35,615 nt of DNA from positions 1-35,615 of the IMG/VR virus record IMGVR_UViG_3300033067_000289; one strand, 5' to 3'. The position numbers and the translations under genes were made by a program. The DNA comes from a virus. Lineage: Duplodnaviria > Caudoviricetes. Positions within the stretch are counted from its first letter, which is position 1; each line of letters opens with the position of its first letter. This document shows, in pieces, positions 1 to 27,504 of the stretch. A model generated the notes under the pieces. The model was not told the DNA's origin and searched no databases. It saw only the letters and a program-made list of their open reading frames with translations.

Positions 1-1
1 A

Positions 2-157
2 GTGCCACCATCCTACCGCGCTGCGCTGGAGAGTTTCGCCCGCCTTGTTGCGGAGGATTGTGCGACTCTGGTTGAAAGCAACGCGGCGCAGTGCAGCGGC
101 ATGACTGCCGAATTGATGCACTCGAATGCAGACGCCATCCGCGCCCGCTACGCTTGA
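2..157 (+). CDS. 3' part of small phage early protein (VPPSYRAALESFARLVAEDCATLVE...ADAIRARYA)
   Basis: Frame 2 open from the window edge to TGA at 155-157; the LExFAxLV...C...AIRAR pattern is common in small phage proteins. Confidence 0.65.
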   Translation: MPPSYRAALESFARLVAEDCATLVESNAAQCSGMTAELMHSNADAIRARYA

Positions 158-181
158 CCACACCGACCCACCCGGTAAAAT
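154..181 (+). promoter_or_regulatory. sigma70-like promoter TTGACC-N16-TAAAAT
   Basis: TTGACC 154-159 and TAAAAT 176-181; predicted +1 near 188, where the first long stem begins. Confidence 0.6.
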
Positions 182-187
182 GGTGGG

Positions 188-667
188 GCCTTCAAGTATG
201 GTGATTGCTACGCAGCCTTTGTCGCTGCCGGGTTTTGAGGGCCATACAGTCACCATACTTGAGGGAACAACGGAAACGACTTAGGCATGTGCAGCGACAA
301 CGCACGCAATGACCCCCGTTGTGCCTTCACATCAGCGGCGGCGTGGATAGCAAGACGGCGAAAGCCAGAAGCAGCAGAGACACGCACAACAGACGAAATG
401 CGCCTGTTCGATTCAGGCGGGAAGATTGGAGTTGTGGCCCTGTCGGGAGTTTTCCGGGGTACACGATTGGGAGTGGCGCTAGTCGGCCACGAGCAGGAGT
501 TGTGCCCTGCCCGCTGATGTGAGGGTCAAAGCAAACGACGCTGCGGGATCGCGGCTGATGCTGGGTTGCACTGGTGGCCGCCCTCAGTCTTACGCCCGCC
601 TGCCATGCGCAGAACGGGTATCCGAAGCCCTTGCGCATCCGTGCGCCGGGGCTTCAGTCTTTATGTT
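188..667 (+). ncRNA. Candidate large structured non-coding RNA of unassigned class
   Basis: Stems 189-207/247-265, 267-273/316-322, 324-338/511-525, 341-345/381-385, 401-406/414-419 (TTCGATT loop), 432-439/485-492, 493-497/506-510; GAAA tetraloop hairpin 357-366; mismatches in the long stems read as G-U pairs on the + strand; no convincing ORF. Confidence 0.65.
624..667 (+). terminator. Probable intrinsic terminator closing the ncRNA region
   Basis: GAAGCCCTTGCGCA-TCCG-TGCGCCGGGGCTTC hairpin (624-655) followed by AGTCTTTATGTT; the U-tract is imperfect. Confidence 0.45.
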
Positions 668-744
668 CAGAATCCGCCCTTTTATGCACATTTAGCCCGG
701 ACGGATAAAAAAATCGCCAGATTCTGTACACGTCCGCGCTTTAC

Positions 745-1257
745 TCAGTCTCCCGACTGAACACACACAGGCCCCACCACATCGGTGATGTAAGCCTGAA
801 GGCCGGTTACTTGGACTGAGAGCCGGTCAGCGACTCCCGCCACGTCTGCATACTCTGCTGCGCACGCTGCGAGTGCGTCGGCTGTGGCGGTGGCTCCATG
901 AGCCAAGCTGCCGGGGGTGGCAGCGTCGGGCGCTCGGGCTGCACGGTCACGAATCGCGGCGATGGTGCGCTGCAACCCGTCAAGACGAGCAGCAGACACG
1001 GCGCGATCACGCGCCACTTGTTCACGTAGGTTTGCGGCTTCAATCTGGGCCTCCAGTGCGGCCATAGCCGCTTGTGTCGTTATGCGCTGGGCTTTGAGGT
1101 TTGCGTCTGCCAGCGCCTGCCGGTGCTGGTCTTGCCATGCCTGGCGCTCGGCCTTCACGGCGCGATCAATGACGCGCCCTGCGTGCCACTCATGCGCCCA
1201 CCATGCCGCGCCAGCAAGGGCCACAGCGCCCGCGTAGAGCCACAGGCGCGGCGTCAT
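745..1257 (-). CDS. Rz: Rz-like inner-membrane spanin
   Basis: N-terminal TM segment (LWLYAGAVALAGAAWW), Ala/Gln coiled coil, late Cys residues; directly after endolysin with ATGA overlap; contains a nested lipoprotein ORF. Confidence 0.85.
   Translation of the reverse strand: MTPRLWLYAGAVALAGAAWWAHEWHAGRVIDRAVKAERQAWQDQHRQALADANLKAQRITTQAAMAALEAQIEAANLREQVARDRAVSAARLDGLQRTIAAIRDRAARAPDAATPGSLAHGATATADALAACAAEYADVAGVADRLSVQVTGLQAYITDVVGPVCVQSGD
807..1043 (-). CDS. Rz1: Rz1-like outer-membrane lipoprotein spanin nested in Rz
   Basis: Lipobox LLLVLTGC followed by a Pro-rich segment (PERPTLPPPAAWLMEPPP), in an alternative frame fully inside Rz; exact start uncertain. Confidence 0.85.
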   Translation of the reverse strand: MKPQTYVNKWRVIAPCLLLVLTGCSAPSPRFVTVQPERPTLPPPAAWLMEPPPQPTHSQRAQQSMQTWRESLTGSQSK

Positions 1258-1874
1258 GCCAGCAGGCCCCGCAGCGCCTGATCGAACGCCGCCTGGCGCT
1301 CATGCAAGCCCACCATGCCGGGGCCGTTCACGGCTCGGGTGATGGCCTTCGTGTTGCTGGCATCAGCGAGGATGTTGAGCTTGTTTGTGTGCCAGTACCA
1401 CGCCGCGGTCAGGCATGCGTCGGATGGCTGGGCCACCAGGTCGGGCTGCTCGATGTAGGGGCGGGCCAACTCCAGCGCGGCGTCGGCGTAGTTGTGTCGG
1501 CCGGTGAGTTGGAACAGGCCGCGCCCACGGTATCGCCAGCCGTCACCGCTGGCCGGGTCACCGTTGCCAAGGCGCAGCGCATAGACACGATTGGCCAATG
1601 CTTTGGGGTTGCGTGTCAGTGTGGCAGCGTCCGCCAAGCTCGACACCCGCGATGGCCACATCTGCCTGATGCGCTCGGGCGTGGTGTACCAGAGATTTTC
1701 CTCCAGCCGGGTGAACCCCGCCGACTCATGAATGCACTGCGCCAGAAACGCAGCCAAGCGCACGGGCGTGCTGATGTCGAACAACGCACACGCCGCCCGC
1801 ATCGGCTCCGCGAACTGCCGGGCCTGTGTGGGGGCGATGCCTGCGGCGATCAGGGTGGCGGGGGTGATGTTCAT
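1254..1874 (-). CDS. Endolysin, glycoside hydrolase family 19
   Basis: FLAQCIHESAGF..LEENL, YRGRGLFQLTGRHNY and TRAVNG motifs; start reassigned to ATG 1874 (MNITPATL) after AAAGGGG RBS. Confidence 0.92.
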   Translation of the reverse strand: MNITPATLIAAGIAPTQARQFAEPMRAACALFDISTPVRLAAFLAQCIHESAGFTRLEENLWYTTPERIRQMWPSRVSSLADAATLTRNPKALANRVYALRLGNGDPASGDGWRYRGRGLFQLTGRHNYADAALELARPYIEQPDLVAQPSDACLTAAWYWHTNKLNILADASNTKAITRAVNGPGMVGLHERQAAFDQALRGLLA

Positions 1875-1890
1875 GGGTGGCCCCTTTGGC

Positions 1891-2673
1891 TTAGAACTTG
1901 ATGCAGTACAGAAGCGCGATGTTTCGGGGGCGGGTCTCCGTGCCACCTGTGGCTTGAGTTGTCCCTAGTTGATACCCGGACAGAAAACGAGGCGCGCCGT
2001 CACTGAGAATTTGAGTAGACGATGCGCCGTTTCCGTGTGTGTGCGATTGGATTTCTTGCGCCTGCGCAGAGCCGAAAACCCGCCCAGAATCCACTCCGCG
2101 CCCATCATCCCAGCCGCGAACAAACTCCCCGAGAAGGTTTGGAAGAGCGAAAGTTGTAGAACCGTCACCAGCGCCAAAAGTCGTCCCGATGGCTGCAAAC
2201 AATGCTGCGTATGTGGTGCGAGATACGGTTTGCCCGTTGGCTTTCAGCCATCCGGTCGGTGCGACATTTTGAGCAAAAGCCATCACCGCGCCCGGTGGCG
2301 CAGAGGCCGACAAACCAGCATCCAACTGCTGTTTAGGCACAGCATGCAACGCCGACGAAGCATTACCCGGCAAAGTCTGCGCCCCGGCGAACGTGTTTGC
2401 ACCCAGCGTGGCGCGGCCCGCCACGTCCGCAAACTGCTGACGGATGGTGACGGATGAGCCTCCGCTGACGACGAGCACGTCATAGAGCCCATCCGGCGCG
2501 TAGAAGGCAATCTTGCCGCCGCTGGTGGCGTTGAATGGGTTGCTCAGTGACGCGCCTGTCTCGTTTTGCAGTCCGGTGGCTGGCGTCAATGTGCCAGCTT
2601 GATAAACCGTCACCGTCGCGCCGGGCAGAACATTGCCCGACGTATCCTGAGCGAAGAATGTCTTGAGTTCCAT
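1891..2673 (-). CDS. Tail fibre protein 2 with tail-collar domain
   Basis: Collar motif PPGAVMAFA..APTGWLKANGQTVSRTTYAALFAAIGTTFGAGDGSTTFALPNLLGEFVRGWDDGRGVD; C-terminal ETRPRNIALLYCIKF. Confidence 0.88.
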   Translation of the reverse strand: MELKTFFAQDTSGNVLPGATVTVYQAGTLTPATGLQNETGASLSNPFNATSGGKIAFYAPDGLYDVLVVSGGSSVTIRQQFADVAGRATLGANTFAGAQTLPGNASSALHAVPKQQLDAGLSASAPPGAVMAFAQNVAPTGWLKANGQTVSRTTYAALFAAIGTTFGAGDGSTTFALPNLLGEFVRGWDDGRGVDSGRVFGSAQAQEIQSHTHGNGASSTQILSDGAPRFLSGYQLGTTQATGGTETRPRNIALLYCIKF

Positions 2674-2682
2674 GTTCGTGCC

Positions 2683-3702
2683 TCAGAACTTGAGTTGTGC
2701 GGAGAAGGGAACGTTGCGGGGGTGATTAACACCGCCCGATGATGATCTATCGCCGCCAGAGGCGCGAAGGCTTTCCAGAGTTTCTACGCCTTCATTAATA
2801 CCAGACCCCACAACCAAACGCCCATTTGTAATAGATGTATTAGGCGCTGGTGGGTCGCCTGCTGTGCCCCAGCCGTCTCTTGGTACTGTCACAGACGATT
2901 CTTGCCACGACCCAAAAACCCGCGCCGCGTCAATGCCGCGCCCGTCATCCCAGAATCGCGGGAATTCCCCCCGCACATCAAACGCCCGGAACGTCACTCC
3001 GTCCGGGTTGTCGGCCATGAGCAGGGTTCCGGCCTGCCACACGCCAGACGCCACGAATCGGCCATTGTGCAGGCCCCATGCACGCAGCGCGGCGTACTGG
3101 GTGCGCGACAGTGCCAGCGACTGAGAGCCACACAGCACATAGCCGGGGCGGGCTGTGGGTTGTGTCTCCATGCGGATCTCGCCCACGAACTGCGACGCAT
3201 AGCCCGTGTACGCCGCCCCATTGGCCGTGAACGACTGCCACGTCATGAGACTGTTGTAGTCGTCGTGCCAGATCGGCCCCACGTTGGAGGTCGGCAACGG
3301 TTCGCCGCTCGTCAGGAATCGGCGCTGATAGGCGTTCACCCACGTCGCCCCCGGCGTGCCGGGCTCGGTGTTGTTGCTGGCAGCCGTGGACAGCCAAGCG
3401 GCATTGTTGTGGTAGACCACAGCGTTGATGGGGTACGGCGCACCGGCAGACGCCCACAGCGCCGCGCCGCGTAGCTGCATTTCGCCGATGGCTTGCGTGG
3501 CCATGAACAAAATGCCGTTCATCTCTTCGCGCCCGACAGGCTTGTAATCAGGGTCAGGCACGCCGGGCGAGATCTCTCGCGGGCGCTCATAGTCGAAGCC
3601 CCAGCCCTGCGGAATGCTCACCGAGCCATCCACCTGCACGGTCGATGGGACGGTGATCTTGTCGCCGGTCTCGGCAAATGCGGTCTTGAAAATGAAAGCC
3701 AC
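2683..3702 (-). CDS. Tail fibre protein 1 (baseplate-anchored)
   Basis: Follows DUF2612; N-terminal FAETGDK..DGSVS..QGWGFDYE..REEMNGIL anchor; W..YPINAVVYHN repeat; collar-like GEFPRFWDDGRGID; GTG start with GGAG RBS. Confidence 0.88.
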   Translation of the reverse strand: MAFIFKTAFAETGDKITVPSTVQVDGSVSIPQGWGFDYERPREISPGVPDPDYKPVGREEMNGILFMATQAIGEMQLRGAALWASAGAPYPINAVVYHNNAAWLSTAASNNTEPGTPGATWVNAYQRRFLTSGEPLPTSNVGPIWHDDYNSLMTWQSFTANGAAYTGYASQFVGEIRMETQPTARPGYVLCGSQSLALSRTQYAALRAWGLHNGRFVASGVWQAGTLLMADNPDGVTFRAFDVRGEFPRFWDDGRGIDAARVFGSWQESSVTVPRDGWGTAGDPPAPNTSITNGRLVVGSGINEGVETLESLRASGGDRSSSGGVNHPRNVPFSAQLKF

Positions 3703-3706
3703 TTGG

Positions 3707-4339
3707 TTACTCCAACACGATGGCCAAAGGATTGAGCACCATCGGCACGGTTTCGCTCACTGTATAGCCCACGGAGGCCGGGCGCAACAGCAGGTCATAT
3801 TTCTGCAAGACGAACTTGAGAGAACTCGGCATCGTGAACGCAAACAGGTACTCTATGGTCATGTCCTGATTGTCCACCGCATAGGCCACGCCCCCGAAGC
3901 CAGAGAACACCGTGGCCAGTGTCTCGTTGATGTTGGGTAGGGTCGGGCGCTTGGTGATCTGAGCGTAGCGCAGCCGGATCACAAGGCGTTTCTGGGCGGT
4001 CGTCAGCGACAGTTCCCCCGCCTGCGCCCGCCCGAAGTTGCCCGCGCCGAAGTTCTCGTTGTTCGACCCGAATCCAAAATTCGCCTCATTGCCCGACGCG
4101 GGCGCATCGACGCCCAGGTTAACGTCAAGAATCCGCGCCCATACCGCAAGCCCGAAATCATTAGCCGTGTTGAAGTCGAAAACGTCGCGCAGCCAGTCGC
4201 GCCAGAACTGCACCTGTGCCGCGTCAAAATAGGCTTGCTCACCATCGACAATCTGACGCAGCCGTGGAGCACCCTCGTACTGCCACAGGATTGCCCGCAG
4301 CAGATTGGCGTTGGTGTCGATGGTCTGGATGTTGCTCAT
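3707..4339 (-). CDS. Baseplate wedge protein, DUF2612-like
   Basis: AILWQYEGAPRL and DFNTANDFGLAVWARIL motifs; sits between baseplate J and the fibre. Confidence 0.85.
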   Translation of the reverse strand: MSNIQTIDTNANLLRAILWQYEGAPRLRQIVDGEQAYFDAAQVQFWRDWLRDVFDFNTANDFGLAVWARILDVNLGVDAPASGNEANFGFGSNNENFGAGNFGRAQAGELSLTTAQKRLVIRLRYAQITKRPTLPNINETLATVFSGFGGVAYAVDNQDMTIEYLFAFTMPSSLKFVLQKYDLLLRPASVGYTVSETVPMVLNPLAIVLE

Positions 4340-24298: not shown

Positions 24299-24634
24299 TC
24301 ACAACCCCTTTTTCTCAGCAAACCGTTGACCCCACTCCCGCACCTTGTCGGCTCCAAAGAGGCCCACGGAAGCGCCGATGAAGGTTGACCAGCCGTCAGC
24401 CATACCGAGGGCTTGGACGAGGCTGGAGATGCCGAGGGCGATCAGCCCGCACAGGACGGACTCCAGCGAGCGGCGAATCCATCGGGGTTCTTTGCCATCG
24501 TAGACGACCCGGACGAATGCGATGAGGGCTGCCAGGATAGCGGCCCGCGCTGGCTCGGGTAGGGCGTCGATCAGCTTCATGAGGGTGCTGGCTTCGTCGT
24601 TCATGCTGAGGGCCTGAGTGTGTTCGTTCGGCAT
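24299..24634 (-). CDS. Holin, lambda S-like class I (3 TM)
   Basis: AALIAFVRVVYDG..R..ES.LCG..A..FIG..VG..G.D..R pattern, three hydrophobic segments, basic C-terminus; start could be Met1, Met11 or Met19. Confidence 0.85.
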   Translation of the reverse strand: MPNEHTQALSMNDEASTLMKLIDALPEPARAAILAALIAFVRVVYDGKEPRWIRRSLESVLCGLIALGISSLVQALGMADGWSTFIGASVGLFGADKVREWGQRFAEKKGL

Positions 24635-24635
24635 G

Positions 24636-24701
24636 AATGTAACAGATGCGGCGCGTTAGGGGCAATGTGTGGATGGTAGCGCATCGGGGGAGTGTGGGCA
24701 A
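24636..24701 (-). promoter_or_regulatory. Two tandem candidate late-operon promoters
   Basis: TTGCCC(24701-24696)-N17-TACCAT(24678-24673) and TTGCCC(24665-24660)-N18-TACATT(24641-24636, with TGn extension). Confidence 0.45.
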
Positions 24702-24779
24702 CTGGCACACCCGGATGGGGGGGGGGTTACGCAATGCGCCAGACGCGTGCGCCGTCAGGGCACCCCGCAAAACTCGCAT

Positions 24780-25106
24780 CTCATTGCACACTCATCGCAC
24801 CGCCAAAAGTGCAATGAGTTCGGCCCAAATGTAACAAAATGTAACCTAAGTCTCGTTGCTAACCTATTGATTTATAAAGATATTTACTACTACTACTACT
24901 ACGTAGTAGTGTCGTGCTGCCAGTTTTTCAACTCATCGCACTCATTGCACCGATTTTTCGATCCCGGATTTTTTTGGTCTGGGTCTGTGTTTGTAGATTG
25001 GGGGTGGTGCAATGAGTTATGAGTTCAAAAAATGCGCTAACCCATTGATTCATAATGAAAAACTCGTCGCACTCGCGCAAAACTCATGTCTCAGCTGTGC
25101 AATGAG
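24780..25106. repeat. Putative replication origin: CTCRTYGCAC iterons, two IHF-consensus sites, AT-rich core and (TAC)6 palindrome
   Basis: Decamer copies start at 24780, 24791, 24932, 24941, 25063 (direct) and 24809, 25007, 25097 (inverted); YAANNNNTTGATW at 24860-24872 and 25038-25050; palindrome ACTACTACGTAGTAGT 24895-24910; directly downstream of the primase-helicase gene. Confidence 0.65.
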
Positions 25107-25121
25107 TTTCGCCGCTGGCAC

Positions 25122-25142
25122 AAAAAAACCGCCCGAAGGCGG
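25122..25142 (-). terminator. Intrinsic terminator of primase-helicase transcript
   Basis: Minus strand CCGCC-TTCG-GGCGG-TTTTTTT (UUCG tetraloop), 22 nt after the stop. Confidence 0.88.
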
Positions 25143-25164
25143 CTTGTGTGGTGGCTCGTGTCGG

Positions 25165-27504
25165 CTAGGCCAGCTTCAGGAATTCGGACGACCTCTGCCC
25201 AGTCTTGCGCATCTCCACCACGATGAGCCCTGCCGACACCATCGCGTCGATCAGCCCCTGGCACCCTTCTCGGCTGGTCTTGAGCGCCCGGTTGATCTTG
25301 TGCCGCGCCACCCAATCGTCGCGCGACAGTAGCGAAAGCACCCGCTGGGTGTCCTTGCCTGTGTCTAGCTCGTCATTGGCACGGGCGTACCTGATCTTGG
25401 TTGCCGTGTCGTCCACCGCAATGGCAAAACCGTACAGGACGTGCTCGGCGGTTCGGTGCCCGCCGTCAGCCATGGCGAGGATGAGGCTGATCTTGGAGCA
25501 CATCTCCCATGACCGGCGCGTGATGGCTTCCATGCCGGTGGTTTCCCGGTGCTTCTCCCCAAGCCGCCAGAAGTGCTCATAAGCCTCCTCCAGCAGCTCA
25601 GACGCCTCTGCCGATGTGGTGACATCAACCGGGTCGCCCTGGCGCTCTACGCGCCCCGTAGCGGGCTGGGAATTGCCGCCGTAGTGCAGGCTGTGCAGCC
25701 GCATGACGATGGTGTCGTCAATGTCGGGCTTGACAAAGCCCTCTTTCTTGCGCGGGTTCGTGTCGGCTTCGCGCAGGATCAGGGCGCGGGCCACAAAGCC
25801 GTTTTTGACGTTCTCGGGCGTCACCGTGGAGTCAAACGTGTCCGGCGTGGTGGTGCCCATCAGCGACAGATAGGGGTCGATAATGCCCATGTCAGCGTCT
25901 TTGATCTGCTGCATGATCTGGGCAATCTCGGCCTCGATCTGCGCCGGGTTGCCGTCGCCGGAGTCTAGGCGCTTGTTCAGGCGGGCGGCGGCGTCTTTGA
26001 GGCTGGTCTTGATCTCCTCTTTCAGGTCGCCCGTGATTGTCAGGATGCCGCACGCCTTGGAGTAGATCTCCATCAGCGCACCGATGACGCCGGTCAGGTA
26101 GATCGCCCCGCCGCCCTTGCTGGCCTGCGCGATCTTTTGGAGCATGATGCCGATCTCGTCCACCAAGTAGTAGGCGGCTTGGTGGCGCAGCAAGTTGCGG
26201 TAGATTTCCTGCTCGGATTTGATCTTGCCGTGCATGGCCTGACTGATGCCGATTCGGGAAAACAGCTTTGTGACGGCTTGGAAAACCGACTCCTTGCCCG
26301 TGCCGGAGCCCGCCACGGCGAAAACCATCAGGTTCAGCCCCAGCCCGTCGCGGGCGTCACGGTGCCTCATGCCGCCGATGCACGACAGGGCGTAGAGCGT
26401 GGCCCCGGCTGCCAGCGTCTGCTTAGGGTAGAGGCACTGGCCTTCGATCCAGCGATAGAGCCTCCCGGCGAAGCCCGGCATGTCCCACGGCTTGATCCCA
26501 CGCGCCATGTCCACGATGCTTTGCGCGGCTGGCGCGGGCTCGTCAAAGTCCACATCTGATTCAAACGTGACGGACTCGACGTAGCCGTGAGCCTTCGCGT
26601 GCATCATCAGCGTGCCGATGGTCACATGGCGGGCGGTCTTGCCGAAACCGTGCCAGCGGTGGTCGCAGTCGCCCGCACGGTAGCGGGCCGCGTCCTTGGC
26701 GCTCATGGCTTCCCACAACGCTAGGCCGAGGTCGCTCCCACCTGTGGTGTGGTGCAGGGCCATGCCGCATTCGATCCACTCGGCATAGGTCAGGCGCTCG
26801 ACCTTCACCGCGTCCGCGATCTGAGCCAGTTCGCCCGCAGGGATGTCGCGCACTACGCCGTTCACGACACCGGGGAAGATGTCGCGCTGTGCGATCTTCT
26901 CCACCAACTCAGTCGGAGGCTCCGCCGTGTCAGCAGGCCCGCCGCGCAAGAGCCGGTAGTCCATGCCCGAAGCGTGCGGGCTGCCATAGCCCACCACAAA
27001 GCCGGAGGTCTTGAAGTCGATGCCGGGGTATTCGGGGAGGTTCTGCCGATAGGTGCGATCGTCCCCGGCTGGCAGGCGGAAATAGTAGTGGGCCGACTCG
27101 CCACCGCTGCCGGTGCGAACCACGAACCGCGCCGCGTCACGGATCGACACGCCAATGGCACGCTCCAGGCGCTCCATGCTTTCGACGCCGCCGTTGCGCT
27201 CGTCCAAGTCCACCACCAGCCAGCCCGACACCAGCACGGCCACGGCGGGGTAAAGCTGCCCCATCATCCGCATGGCTTCGACCTGCTCTGCGTCCCATTC
27301 CGGCGTGTGCTGCCATGCTCCTGCTACGGGGTGTTTGCCCACGGCTTTGCACTCATGGTTCCCGCACCCGCACCCGATGGCCCCGCCGCCGTGCTCCACG
27401 ATGCGCTGCAGCGGCAGCACGCGAAAACCCGCAGCCATGTAGCGTGCATAGGGGAGCGCTGCTTCTTCCTCGGGCGTCAACGCCTCATTGTCGTCATCCC
27501 ACAT
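25165..27504 (-). CDS. Bifunctional Prim-Pol primase with PriCT-2 and C-terminal P-loop helicase-like domain
   Basis: CGCG..C..GKHP Zn site, VVDLDERNGG, TGSGG.SAHYYF, IDFK; W...GMALH..W..S (PriCT-2); GSGTGKE Walker A and VDEIG; ATG 27504 coupled to the HTH stop. Confidence 0.9.
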   Translation of the reverse strand: MWDDDNEALTPEEEAALPYARYMAAGFRVLPLQRIVEHGGGAIGCGCGNHECKAVGKHPVAGAWQHTPEWDAEQVEAMRMMGQLYPAVAVLVSGWLVVDLDERNGGVESMERLERAIGVSIRDAARFVVRTGSGGESAHYYFRLPAGDDRTYRQNLPEYPGIDFKTSGFVVGYGSPHASGMDYRLLRGGPADTAEPPTELVEKIAQRDIFPGVVNGVVRDIPAGELAQIADAVKVERLTYAEWIECGMALHHTTGGSDLGLALWEAMSAKDAARYRAGDCDHRWHGFGKTARHVTIGTLMMHAKAHGYVESVTFESDVDFDEPAPAAQSIVDMARGIKPWDMPGFAGRLYRWIEGQCLYPKQTLAAGATLYALSCIGGMRHRDARDGLGLNLMVFAVAGSGTGKESVFQAVTKLFSRIGISQAMHGKIKSEQEIYRNLLRHQAAYYLVDEIGIMLQKIAQASKGGGAIYLTGVIGALMEIYSKACGILTITGDLKEEIKTSLKDAAARLNKRLDSGDGNPAQIEAEIAQIMQQIKDADMGIIDPYLSLMGTTTPDTFDSTVTPENVKNGFVARALILREADTNPRKKEGFVKPDIDDTIVMRLHSLHYGGNSQPATGRVERQGDPVDVTTSAEASELLEEAYEHFWRLGEKHRETTGMEAITRRSWEMCSKISLILAMADGGHRTAEHVLYGFAIAVDDTATKIRYARANDELDTGKDTQRVLSLLSRDDWVARHKINRALKTSREGCQGLIDAMVSAGLIVVEMRKTGQRSSEFLKLA

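Follow-up and report, generated by a model that had tools for sequence, protein, structure and literature searches.

The region between positions 154 and 667 of the window (the whole 35,615-nt stretch of virus record IMGVR_UViG_3300033067_000289) is a row of four folded RNA cassettes followed by a terminal module, not one 480-nt RNA. It is apparently an undescribed variant of the RNase III-processed prophage RNA operons. We have very little doubt that the region is a real functional RNA, and we hold it quite probable that this RNA is processed into several RNAs. The original prediction had left the choice between a single RNA and a processed RNA array; the array is the option we prefer, whereas one molecule of ~480 nt is not supported. 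What had been overlooked is that D3 has a tRNA-like frame, that there is a fourth module (520–586) and that neighboring modules share hexamers. The region and its neighbor comprise:

154–181, + strand: sigma70-like promoter, TTGACC-16-TAAAAT, a 10/12 match to consensus
189–265, + strand: cassette 1 (D1), a 19-bp stem running from hexamer a1 (CCTTCA, 189–194) to a1′ (TGAGGG, 260–265), with a variable interior
260–329, + strand: cassette 2 (D2, 267–322, with its own 7-bp stem), closable by pairing of a1′ with a2 (CCTTCA, 324–329)
324–525, + strand: cassette 3 (D3, 'X'), a tRNA-shaped frame with stem 324–338/511–525, then a CG linker
341–345/381–385, + strand: D-like arm of D3, with an expanded loop
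386–492, + strand: D3 core, where a tRNA has its anticodon arm
401–419, + strand: hairpin of the D3 core with the canonical T-loop TTCGATT, common to five relatives
493–497/506–510, + strand: T-like arm of D3, directly on the 3′ strand of the stem
520–586, + strand: cassette 4 ('Y'), closed by a2′ (TGAGGG, 520–525) pairing with a3 (CCCTCA, 581–586)
594–667, + strand: terminal module, with hairpins 594–619 and 624–655 and a T-rich tail
745–1257, – strand: Rz-like spanin gene, convergent neighbor outside the array

The five hexamers alternate, are complementary and are shared by neighboring cassettes. The window is a linear virus record, ~82% complete, of a contractile-tailed phage with genes for spanin, endolysin, tail fibres, baseplate, sheath, capsid and terminase; the array faces the spanin gene convergently. 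Arrays of the same kind are present in Pseudorhodoferax and Variovorax genomes. Elsewhere in the window, the adjacent tail-fibre genes at 1891–2673 and 2683–3702 (– strand) have a 62-nt repeat in common (2069–2130 and 2909–2970, 71%), possibly a duplication or a host-range module. The holin gene (24299–24634, – strand) adjoins the small terminase gene, ~22 kb away from endolysin and spanin. The non-coding stretch 24635–25165, 3′ of the primase gene, is origin-like: the words GCAATGAG/CTCATTGC recur in it, and it also holds a CTA run and, at 24940–25017, an inverted repeat of 12 perfect bp.

The predicted stem positions hold for D1, D2, D3 and the hairpins at 540–555 and 624–655. D1 is closed by a 19-bp stem (189–207/247–265) with a perfect 13-bp core (192–204/250–262), and D3 by a 15-bp stem (324–338/511–525) with a perfect 12-bp core (327–338/511–522). 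Against dinucleotide shuffles, the comparison proposed with the original prediction, folding is better for D1 (z = –4.6, 0/200 shuffles as good), D3 (z = –3.3, 2/200), 590–667 (z = –3.2, 2/200) and the whole of 185–667 (z = –2.4 to –2.9). D2 lies where it had been placed, but folded alone it is no better than chance (z = –1.3); with its hexamers, cassette 2 reaches z = –2.9. Positions 519–588 alone do not rise above chance (z = –0.8). The predicted hairpin 605–638 overlaps the conserved 594–655 fold, and three homologues do not preserve its arms. A perfect 12-bp inverted repeat is present in 20 of 30 shuffles of the 35.6-kb window, so that a single such repeat is not rare, and the case therefore rests on homologues.

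Folding favors the + strand (–207 kcal/mol, versus –188 kcal/mol for the – strand), and the wobble pairs fit the + strand, as predicted. No reading frame is open across all six members of the D3 subfamily, the minus-strand frame of ORF 327–638 being open in 3/6; lengths modulo 3 are 33/23/37. Covariation, a model match on the + strand only and the absence of a common open frame support the claim of a functional + strand structured RNA. The sigma70-like promoter is the sole match in 1–3000, which is weak evidence on its own given a chance expectation of 0.5 ± 0.7. Transcription is predicted to start near 185–188; a variant contig from run X3, with a loose end, has TAGAAT as its –10 element. BLASTN of 140–720 against cultured phages gave no match. 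ARAGORN called no tRNA or tmRNA in the window, and Rfam, also among the suggested checks, returned nothing at threshold there (sar 24.2 bits versus 43, C4 none).

Outside D3, evidence from relatives differs between the cassettes. D1 has a homologue in L324 and L283 with changes on both strands, and lacks a T-like arm; run X11 has other interiors behind 207 and before 247. A pattern scan for D1 gave two AT-rich matches, which we ascribe to chance. For cassette 2, a diverged homologue was looked for and none was found. For cassette 4, L286 has TGAAGG/CCTTCA at the positions of the window's TGAGGG/CCCTCA; an automatic alignment of this cassette with three relatives was misaligned and was not used. 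The terminal module is likely a terminator and is weakly sar-like. At 624–655, where a terminator-like hairpin had been proposed, the terminator scan makes no call, but the two-hairpin module 594–655 is conserved in three other arrays, with 8/22 pairs changed on both sides. Across the loci, terminators were found downstream in only 9/59 versus 4/59 in the control.

D3 is a member of a family built on a common frame. An unrelated contig, L026, matches 323–533 of the window at 93% and nothing beyond. Pattern scans for the closing stem, with stretches from viruses (18), metagenomes (18) and genomes (2), yielded 26 distinct elements including the window; L291, L294 and L298 of the viral set were dropped for want of the frame, along with duplicates, and L284 was kept though its D-like arm does not parse. 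A first 15-mer scan had returned mostly chance matches (closing stem in 7/120). The frame common to the 26 elements consists of a long stem, a 2-nt linker, a 5-bp hairpin, a variable core and a 5-bp hairpin on the 3′ strand. This geometry is that of a tRNA with the anticodon arm replaced.

The T-like arm was also scanned alone to escape selection by the stem, and its word occurs in ~350 IMG/VR stretches. Family statistics refer to 93 distinct parsed copies among the 120 matches listed of these ~350, with 21 matches unparsed; the T stem of the 93 is fixed by the search pattern, and since the parse chooses among D-arm candidates by length of stem, it somewhat favors pairing. In the 26 stem-selected copies the T stem varies yet stays paired. 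Among the 93 copies from the matches listed, stem positions 3–7 are paired in 97.4%, whereas shuffling of the 3′ strands gives 50.9% and at most 56.6%; pairing drops between position 7 (87/93) and position 9 (53/93), and the core occupying the place of the anticodon arm measures 28–174 nt. Stem sequence varies freely across the family, and 13/20 pairs have changed on both sides in the 45 shortest copies of the 93. A model built from these 45, with the window left out, has its best window match at 329–520 (+ strand only, E = 0.005) and matches 23/25 stem-selected loci, as well as 2/151 genomes of one bacterial family. It is weak on the window's own subfamily (L286, E = 0.28), and blanks in relatives are therefore soft. 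Such blanks include 41 loci searched with the model out of 162 around relatives of the phage's spanin, baseplate and terminase; BLAST found no match in any of the 162.

The canonical loops of the family are GAWGGA in the D-like arm and WAUCAAGC in the T-like arm, the latter 8 nt long. They co-occur (9 elements with both, 13 with neither, 4 discordant; n = 26; Fisher P = 0.001, rows not independent), and two discordant rows, L283 and L300, are parse failures with a visible GAAGGA loop. In tRNA, D-loop GG and T-loop UUCRA make the elbow contacts. D3 of the window has neither canonical loop of the family: its subfamily changed both, and its core holds the hairpin with a canonical T-loop at 401–419, one pair of which has changed on both sides in 2/6 members.

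Two cultured phages, Caulobacter phage DMCA (PQ480021) and Komagataeibacter phage phiKX2 (LC644976), have full copies of the frame at places without annotation. In both, the frame adjoins an integrase gene (L444:968–2287 and 2834–4024, L445:1188–1958). Across the D3 family there is no constant neighbor gene: 41 of 120 flanking ORFs have a PHROG match, with 7 lysis, 5 HNH, 4 packaging and 1 integrase assignments among the 120, and the name Ro60 is absent among these 120 ORFs, 41 of which have any PHROG match. tRNA genes lie within 700 nt of the frame in 12/61 loci, in 12/12 cases on the strand of the element. The family has no Rfam match, as searched with the element in 8 and in 20 family loci. 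Among the papers searched, we found no description of the D3 frame or the hexamer chain, and none of four motif strings turns up in the text of any paper; fragments may be among the 8,495 candidates of PMC10690425.

The second feature of the array is its chain of hexamers. Extended copies of the frame have a 15-bp stem ending in CCATCA/TGATGG or a variant. In 30/34 extended copies the 3′ word has a second, downstream partner (6.0 expected), as against 14/84 non-extended copies; extension by a hexamer is seen in 8/93 copies of the T-arm scan, among the matches listed. Upstream, alternation is not general (last hexamer none in 16, a′ in 10, a in 8). L318 has seven strictly alternating hexamers followed by a terminator, and L283 repeats the module order of the window: D1 homologue, middle unit, frame, last unit, terminator-like end. 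Several other units were seen near hexamers. A small GGAAAGAC-loop hairpin stands directly before the first hexamer, upstream of the frame, in L026, L044, L283, L289 and L380. Units derived from tRNAs, their D and T loops normal but their anticodon arms swollen or lost, lie between hexamers in L380 (1753–1880, strand coordinates), L314 (2153–2250) and L288 (after 3148). In L300 (3181–3269) an ARAGORN tRNA begins inside the TGATGG word at the frame end.

Contigs of public runs join window positions 194>323, 259>520, 207>520 and 348>504, as well as 586>667 and 586>663, the last two lacking the terminal module. Others have different interiors behind 207, 346, 440 and 527, the promoter joined straight to D3, or a tRNA-type 3′ end before 594. 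The joints were read from contigs of metagenomes, at a likeness of 85%, with sides of 25–50 letters and mostly unknown sequence between; two of the runs bear an RNA-Seq label but probably consist of DNA, and they too are contigs. Such apparent natural variants with modules missing or replaced, several of them at hexamers, count as support and not as proof.

How would such an array mature? The long-stem register (a1:a1′, a2:a2′) is 11.5 kcal/mol better than the other, and in equilibrium folding of the uncut precursor the clasp register has a probability of 0. With the long stems favored, cassettes 2 and 4 would therefore be clasped only after cutting. In six related loci, the unit 3′ of the hexamer aligns at both ends with the dicF–dicB element of prophage Qin, and pieces of the unit aligned to this element match 199 cultured phage records. 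PMC6212723 places the in vivo RNase III cuts of Qin at 1649454 and 1649584; with the coordinate taken as the first base after the cut, they read U^GAUG and CAUCAC^. For Rac, there is a mapped cut at CAUCAAC^, with G^UGAUG as the predicted partner. In relatives, then, RNase III cuts at this word. The dicF–dicB homology and the cuts at a like word make RNase III processing the likely mechanism, and we rate RNase III as rather probably the main cutter. In E. coli K-12 itself (L447:1643–1794 for Qin, L448 for Rac), the elements that RNase III excises ahead of dicB and kilR carry no RNA annotation; both have homologues in many phages.

We scored 17 distinct array stems, picked by the hexamer itself, with the pair counts given in PMC6212723. 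By these counts the best cut register is 8 bp in 11/17 stems, 10 bp in 4 and 7 bp in 2; for Qin, the mapped register shares the top score. None of the 17 stems has G-C at hexamer position 3. The matrix scores are only modestly above those of shuffled stems (median P = 0.15; 4/17 below 0.1). The RNase III valley holds ~22 bp, versus an outer arm of 6–8 bp in the arrays. Cassettes 2 and 4 of the window are not of the Qin type. Extension is found in only 8/93 copies of the matches listed, and most frames must therefore mature another way. Both the short outer arm and the rare extension count against RNase III as a complete explanation.

The main rival, which we consider unlikely, is maturation in tRNA style: RNase P would cut 5′ of the acceptor-like stems (332 in D3, 521 in cassette 4), 3′ trimming would follow, and the hexamers would be recombination scars or folding aids. 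It predicts the same D3 5′ end as RNase III cleavage. The family-wide 7–8-bp core stem on a 5-bp T-like arm agrees with it, as do the 85/93 copies (matches listed) without extension, the tRNAs and tRNA-like units within arrays (L300, L314, L380), of which that of L300 starts inside a hexamer, and the association of canonical D and T loops (Fisher P = 0.001, rows not independent). It is harder to reconcile with the non-canonical state of both window loops, a leader that is paired in the favored register, CCA encoded within positions 8–14 in only 12/93 copies (matches listed), and a D1 that lacks the T-like arm.

We lean slightly towards an overall explanation by RNase III: a precursor, cuts in the D1 and D3 stems, and separate small RNAs serving as ligands or decoys for host proteins. 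The array would be transcribed as one precursor and fold with its long stems closed. RNase III would cut both strands of the D1 and D3 stems 7–8 bp in from the outer end, with predicted new 5′ ends at 196/197, 260/261, 331/332 and 520/521. Each freed hexamer could then re-pair with its other neighbor, clasping cassettes 2 and 4 shut, and what remains of the D3 stem would be 7–8 bp long and acceptor-like, end in an overhang of 2 nt and stack on the T-like arm. The same repeated words would be DNA crossover points at which cassettes are gained, lost and swapped. The frame may give stability, with the variable cores acting in trans.

Several known RNAs resemble parts of this array. Engineered tRNA scaffolds carry a larger domain in place of the anticodon arm. 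GOLLD, ROOL and OLE likewise come from large folded regions of phages that hold no genes and often lie close to tRNAs, and each has one conserved fold; in contrast, the window holds a shuffled array without Rfam match. D3 resembles a tRNA in its 7-bp acceptor stem, 2-nt linker, D-like arm and 5-bp T-like arm, but has no anticodon arm and an 8-nt T-like loop, and neither ARAGORN nor Rfam recognizes a tRNA in the window. As in tmRNA, the anticodon arm is replaced by a larger domain; unlike tmRNA, G-U at the 3:70 position is found in only 1/93 copies (matches listed), and there is no ARAGORN call. YrlA, a Y RNA encoded near Ro60, is likewise a tRNA mimic with D- and T-like arms that occurs in phages (PMC4201824). 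Its order is T, closed acceptor hairpin, D, whereas the D3 frame runs D, variable core, T, with an open acceptor-like stem; no YrlA match was returned by Rfam for the window or the family loci. T4 RNAC and RNAD are small RNAs of a phage tRNA region and are likened here by description, in the part of PMC3014915 at hand, which describes no interlocking words for them. Membership of C4/sar was rejected: the Rfam sar score is 24.2 of 43 bits, C4 gives none, and a complementary target is not found in the phage's own genome (~82% complete). The array belongs to none of tRNA, tmRNA, YrlA, C4/sar or GOLLD/ROOL.

The closest parallels are the dicBF operon of Qin and the kilR leader of Rac, with a homologous module in related arrays and mapped cuts at a word resembling the hexamer. 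Qin, however, has one element within a protein-coding operon, with no X frame and no alternating chain, and its long arm lies outside the module, whereas in the window the long arm is the stem of the neighbor. The window array, unlike dicBF, is all non-coding and without the Qin-type module, which is present in six related loci.

The released RNAs may be bound by host RNA-binding proteins, as ligands or as decoys; fixed frames, freely exchanged folded cores and arrays that differ between close variants would fit binding to host proteins under changing selection. We hold this decoy role only tentatively. A GGA loop had suggested a CsrA sponge, an idea we dropped, with one loop per module and none in the window's D3. 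Alternatively, the released pieces could be base-pairing regulators of host or phage mRNAs, of the DicF, C4 or sar type, with the frame as carrier. This seems to us improbable, given that the cores are mostly paired and that the longest complement to the rest of the genome (~82% complete) is 10–12 nt, matched by 20–38 of 40 shuffles; this complement search lends no support to antisense control of the phage's own genes.

A single promoter, a single terminal module and the better-than-shuffled folding of the entire region would suit one large RNA working whole, like GOLLD or ROOL, a likeness raised in the original prediction. We judge it very unlikely: the modules stand in different company elsewhere and are deleted, replaced or swapped in close variants, and Rfam has no match. 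Least credible of all are DNA-level elements without RNA function (miniature inverted-repeat or recombination cassettes), which would explain the inverted ends, sharp boundaries and patchy spread, with no BLAST match in 162 relatives' loci, but not the covarying internal arms, the G-U wobbles that fit the + strand, the freely variable stem sequence or the tRNA neighbors on the same strand in 12/12 cases.

Overall, the preferred reading would supply a rule for processing, and a unit that can be tested, in phage regions of a widespread kind that hold no genes. Its copies of the frame in cultured phages open the old question of the stable RNAs of phage tRNA regions to experiment. A natural tRNA scaffold that has swappable cores and is set free by a host nuclease also offers a design by which one promoter could yield several small RNAs. 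More speculatively, and with considerable doubt, phages of Proteobacteria may possess a hypervariable library of RNA cassettes, in which tRNA-shaped frames with interchangeable cores form a chain and a single linking word serves simultaneously as RNase III half-site, as clasp of the next RNA and as DNA crossover point. The cores would be decoys in counter-defence, with toxins and nucleases directed at tRNAs as examples of what they counter. If so, these arrays would be an RNA counterpart of integron cassette arrays.
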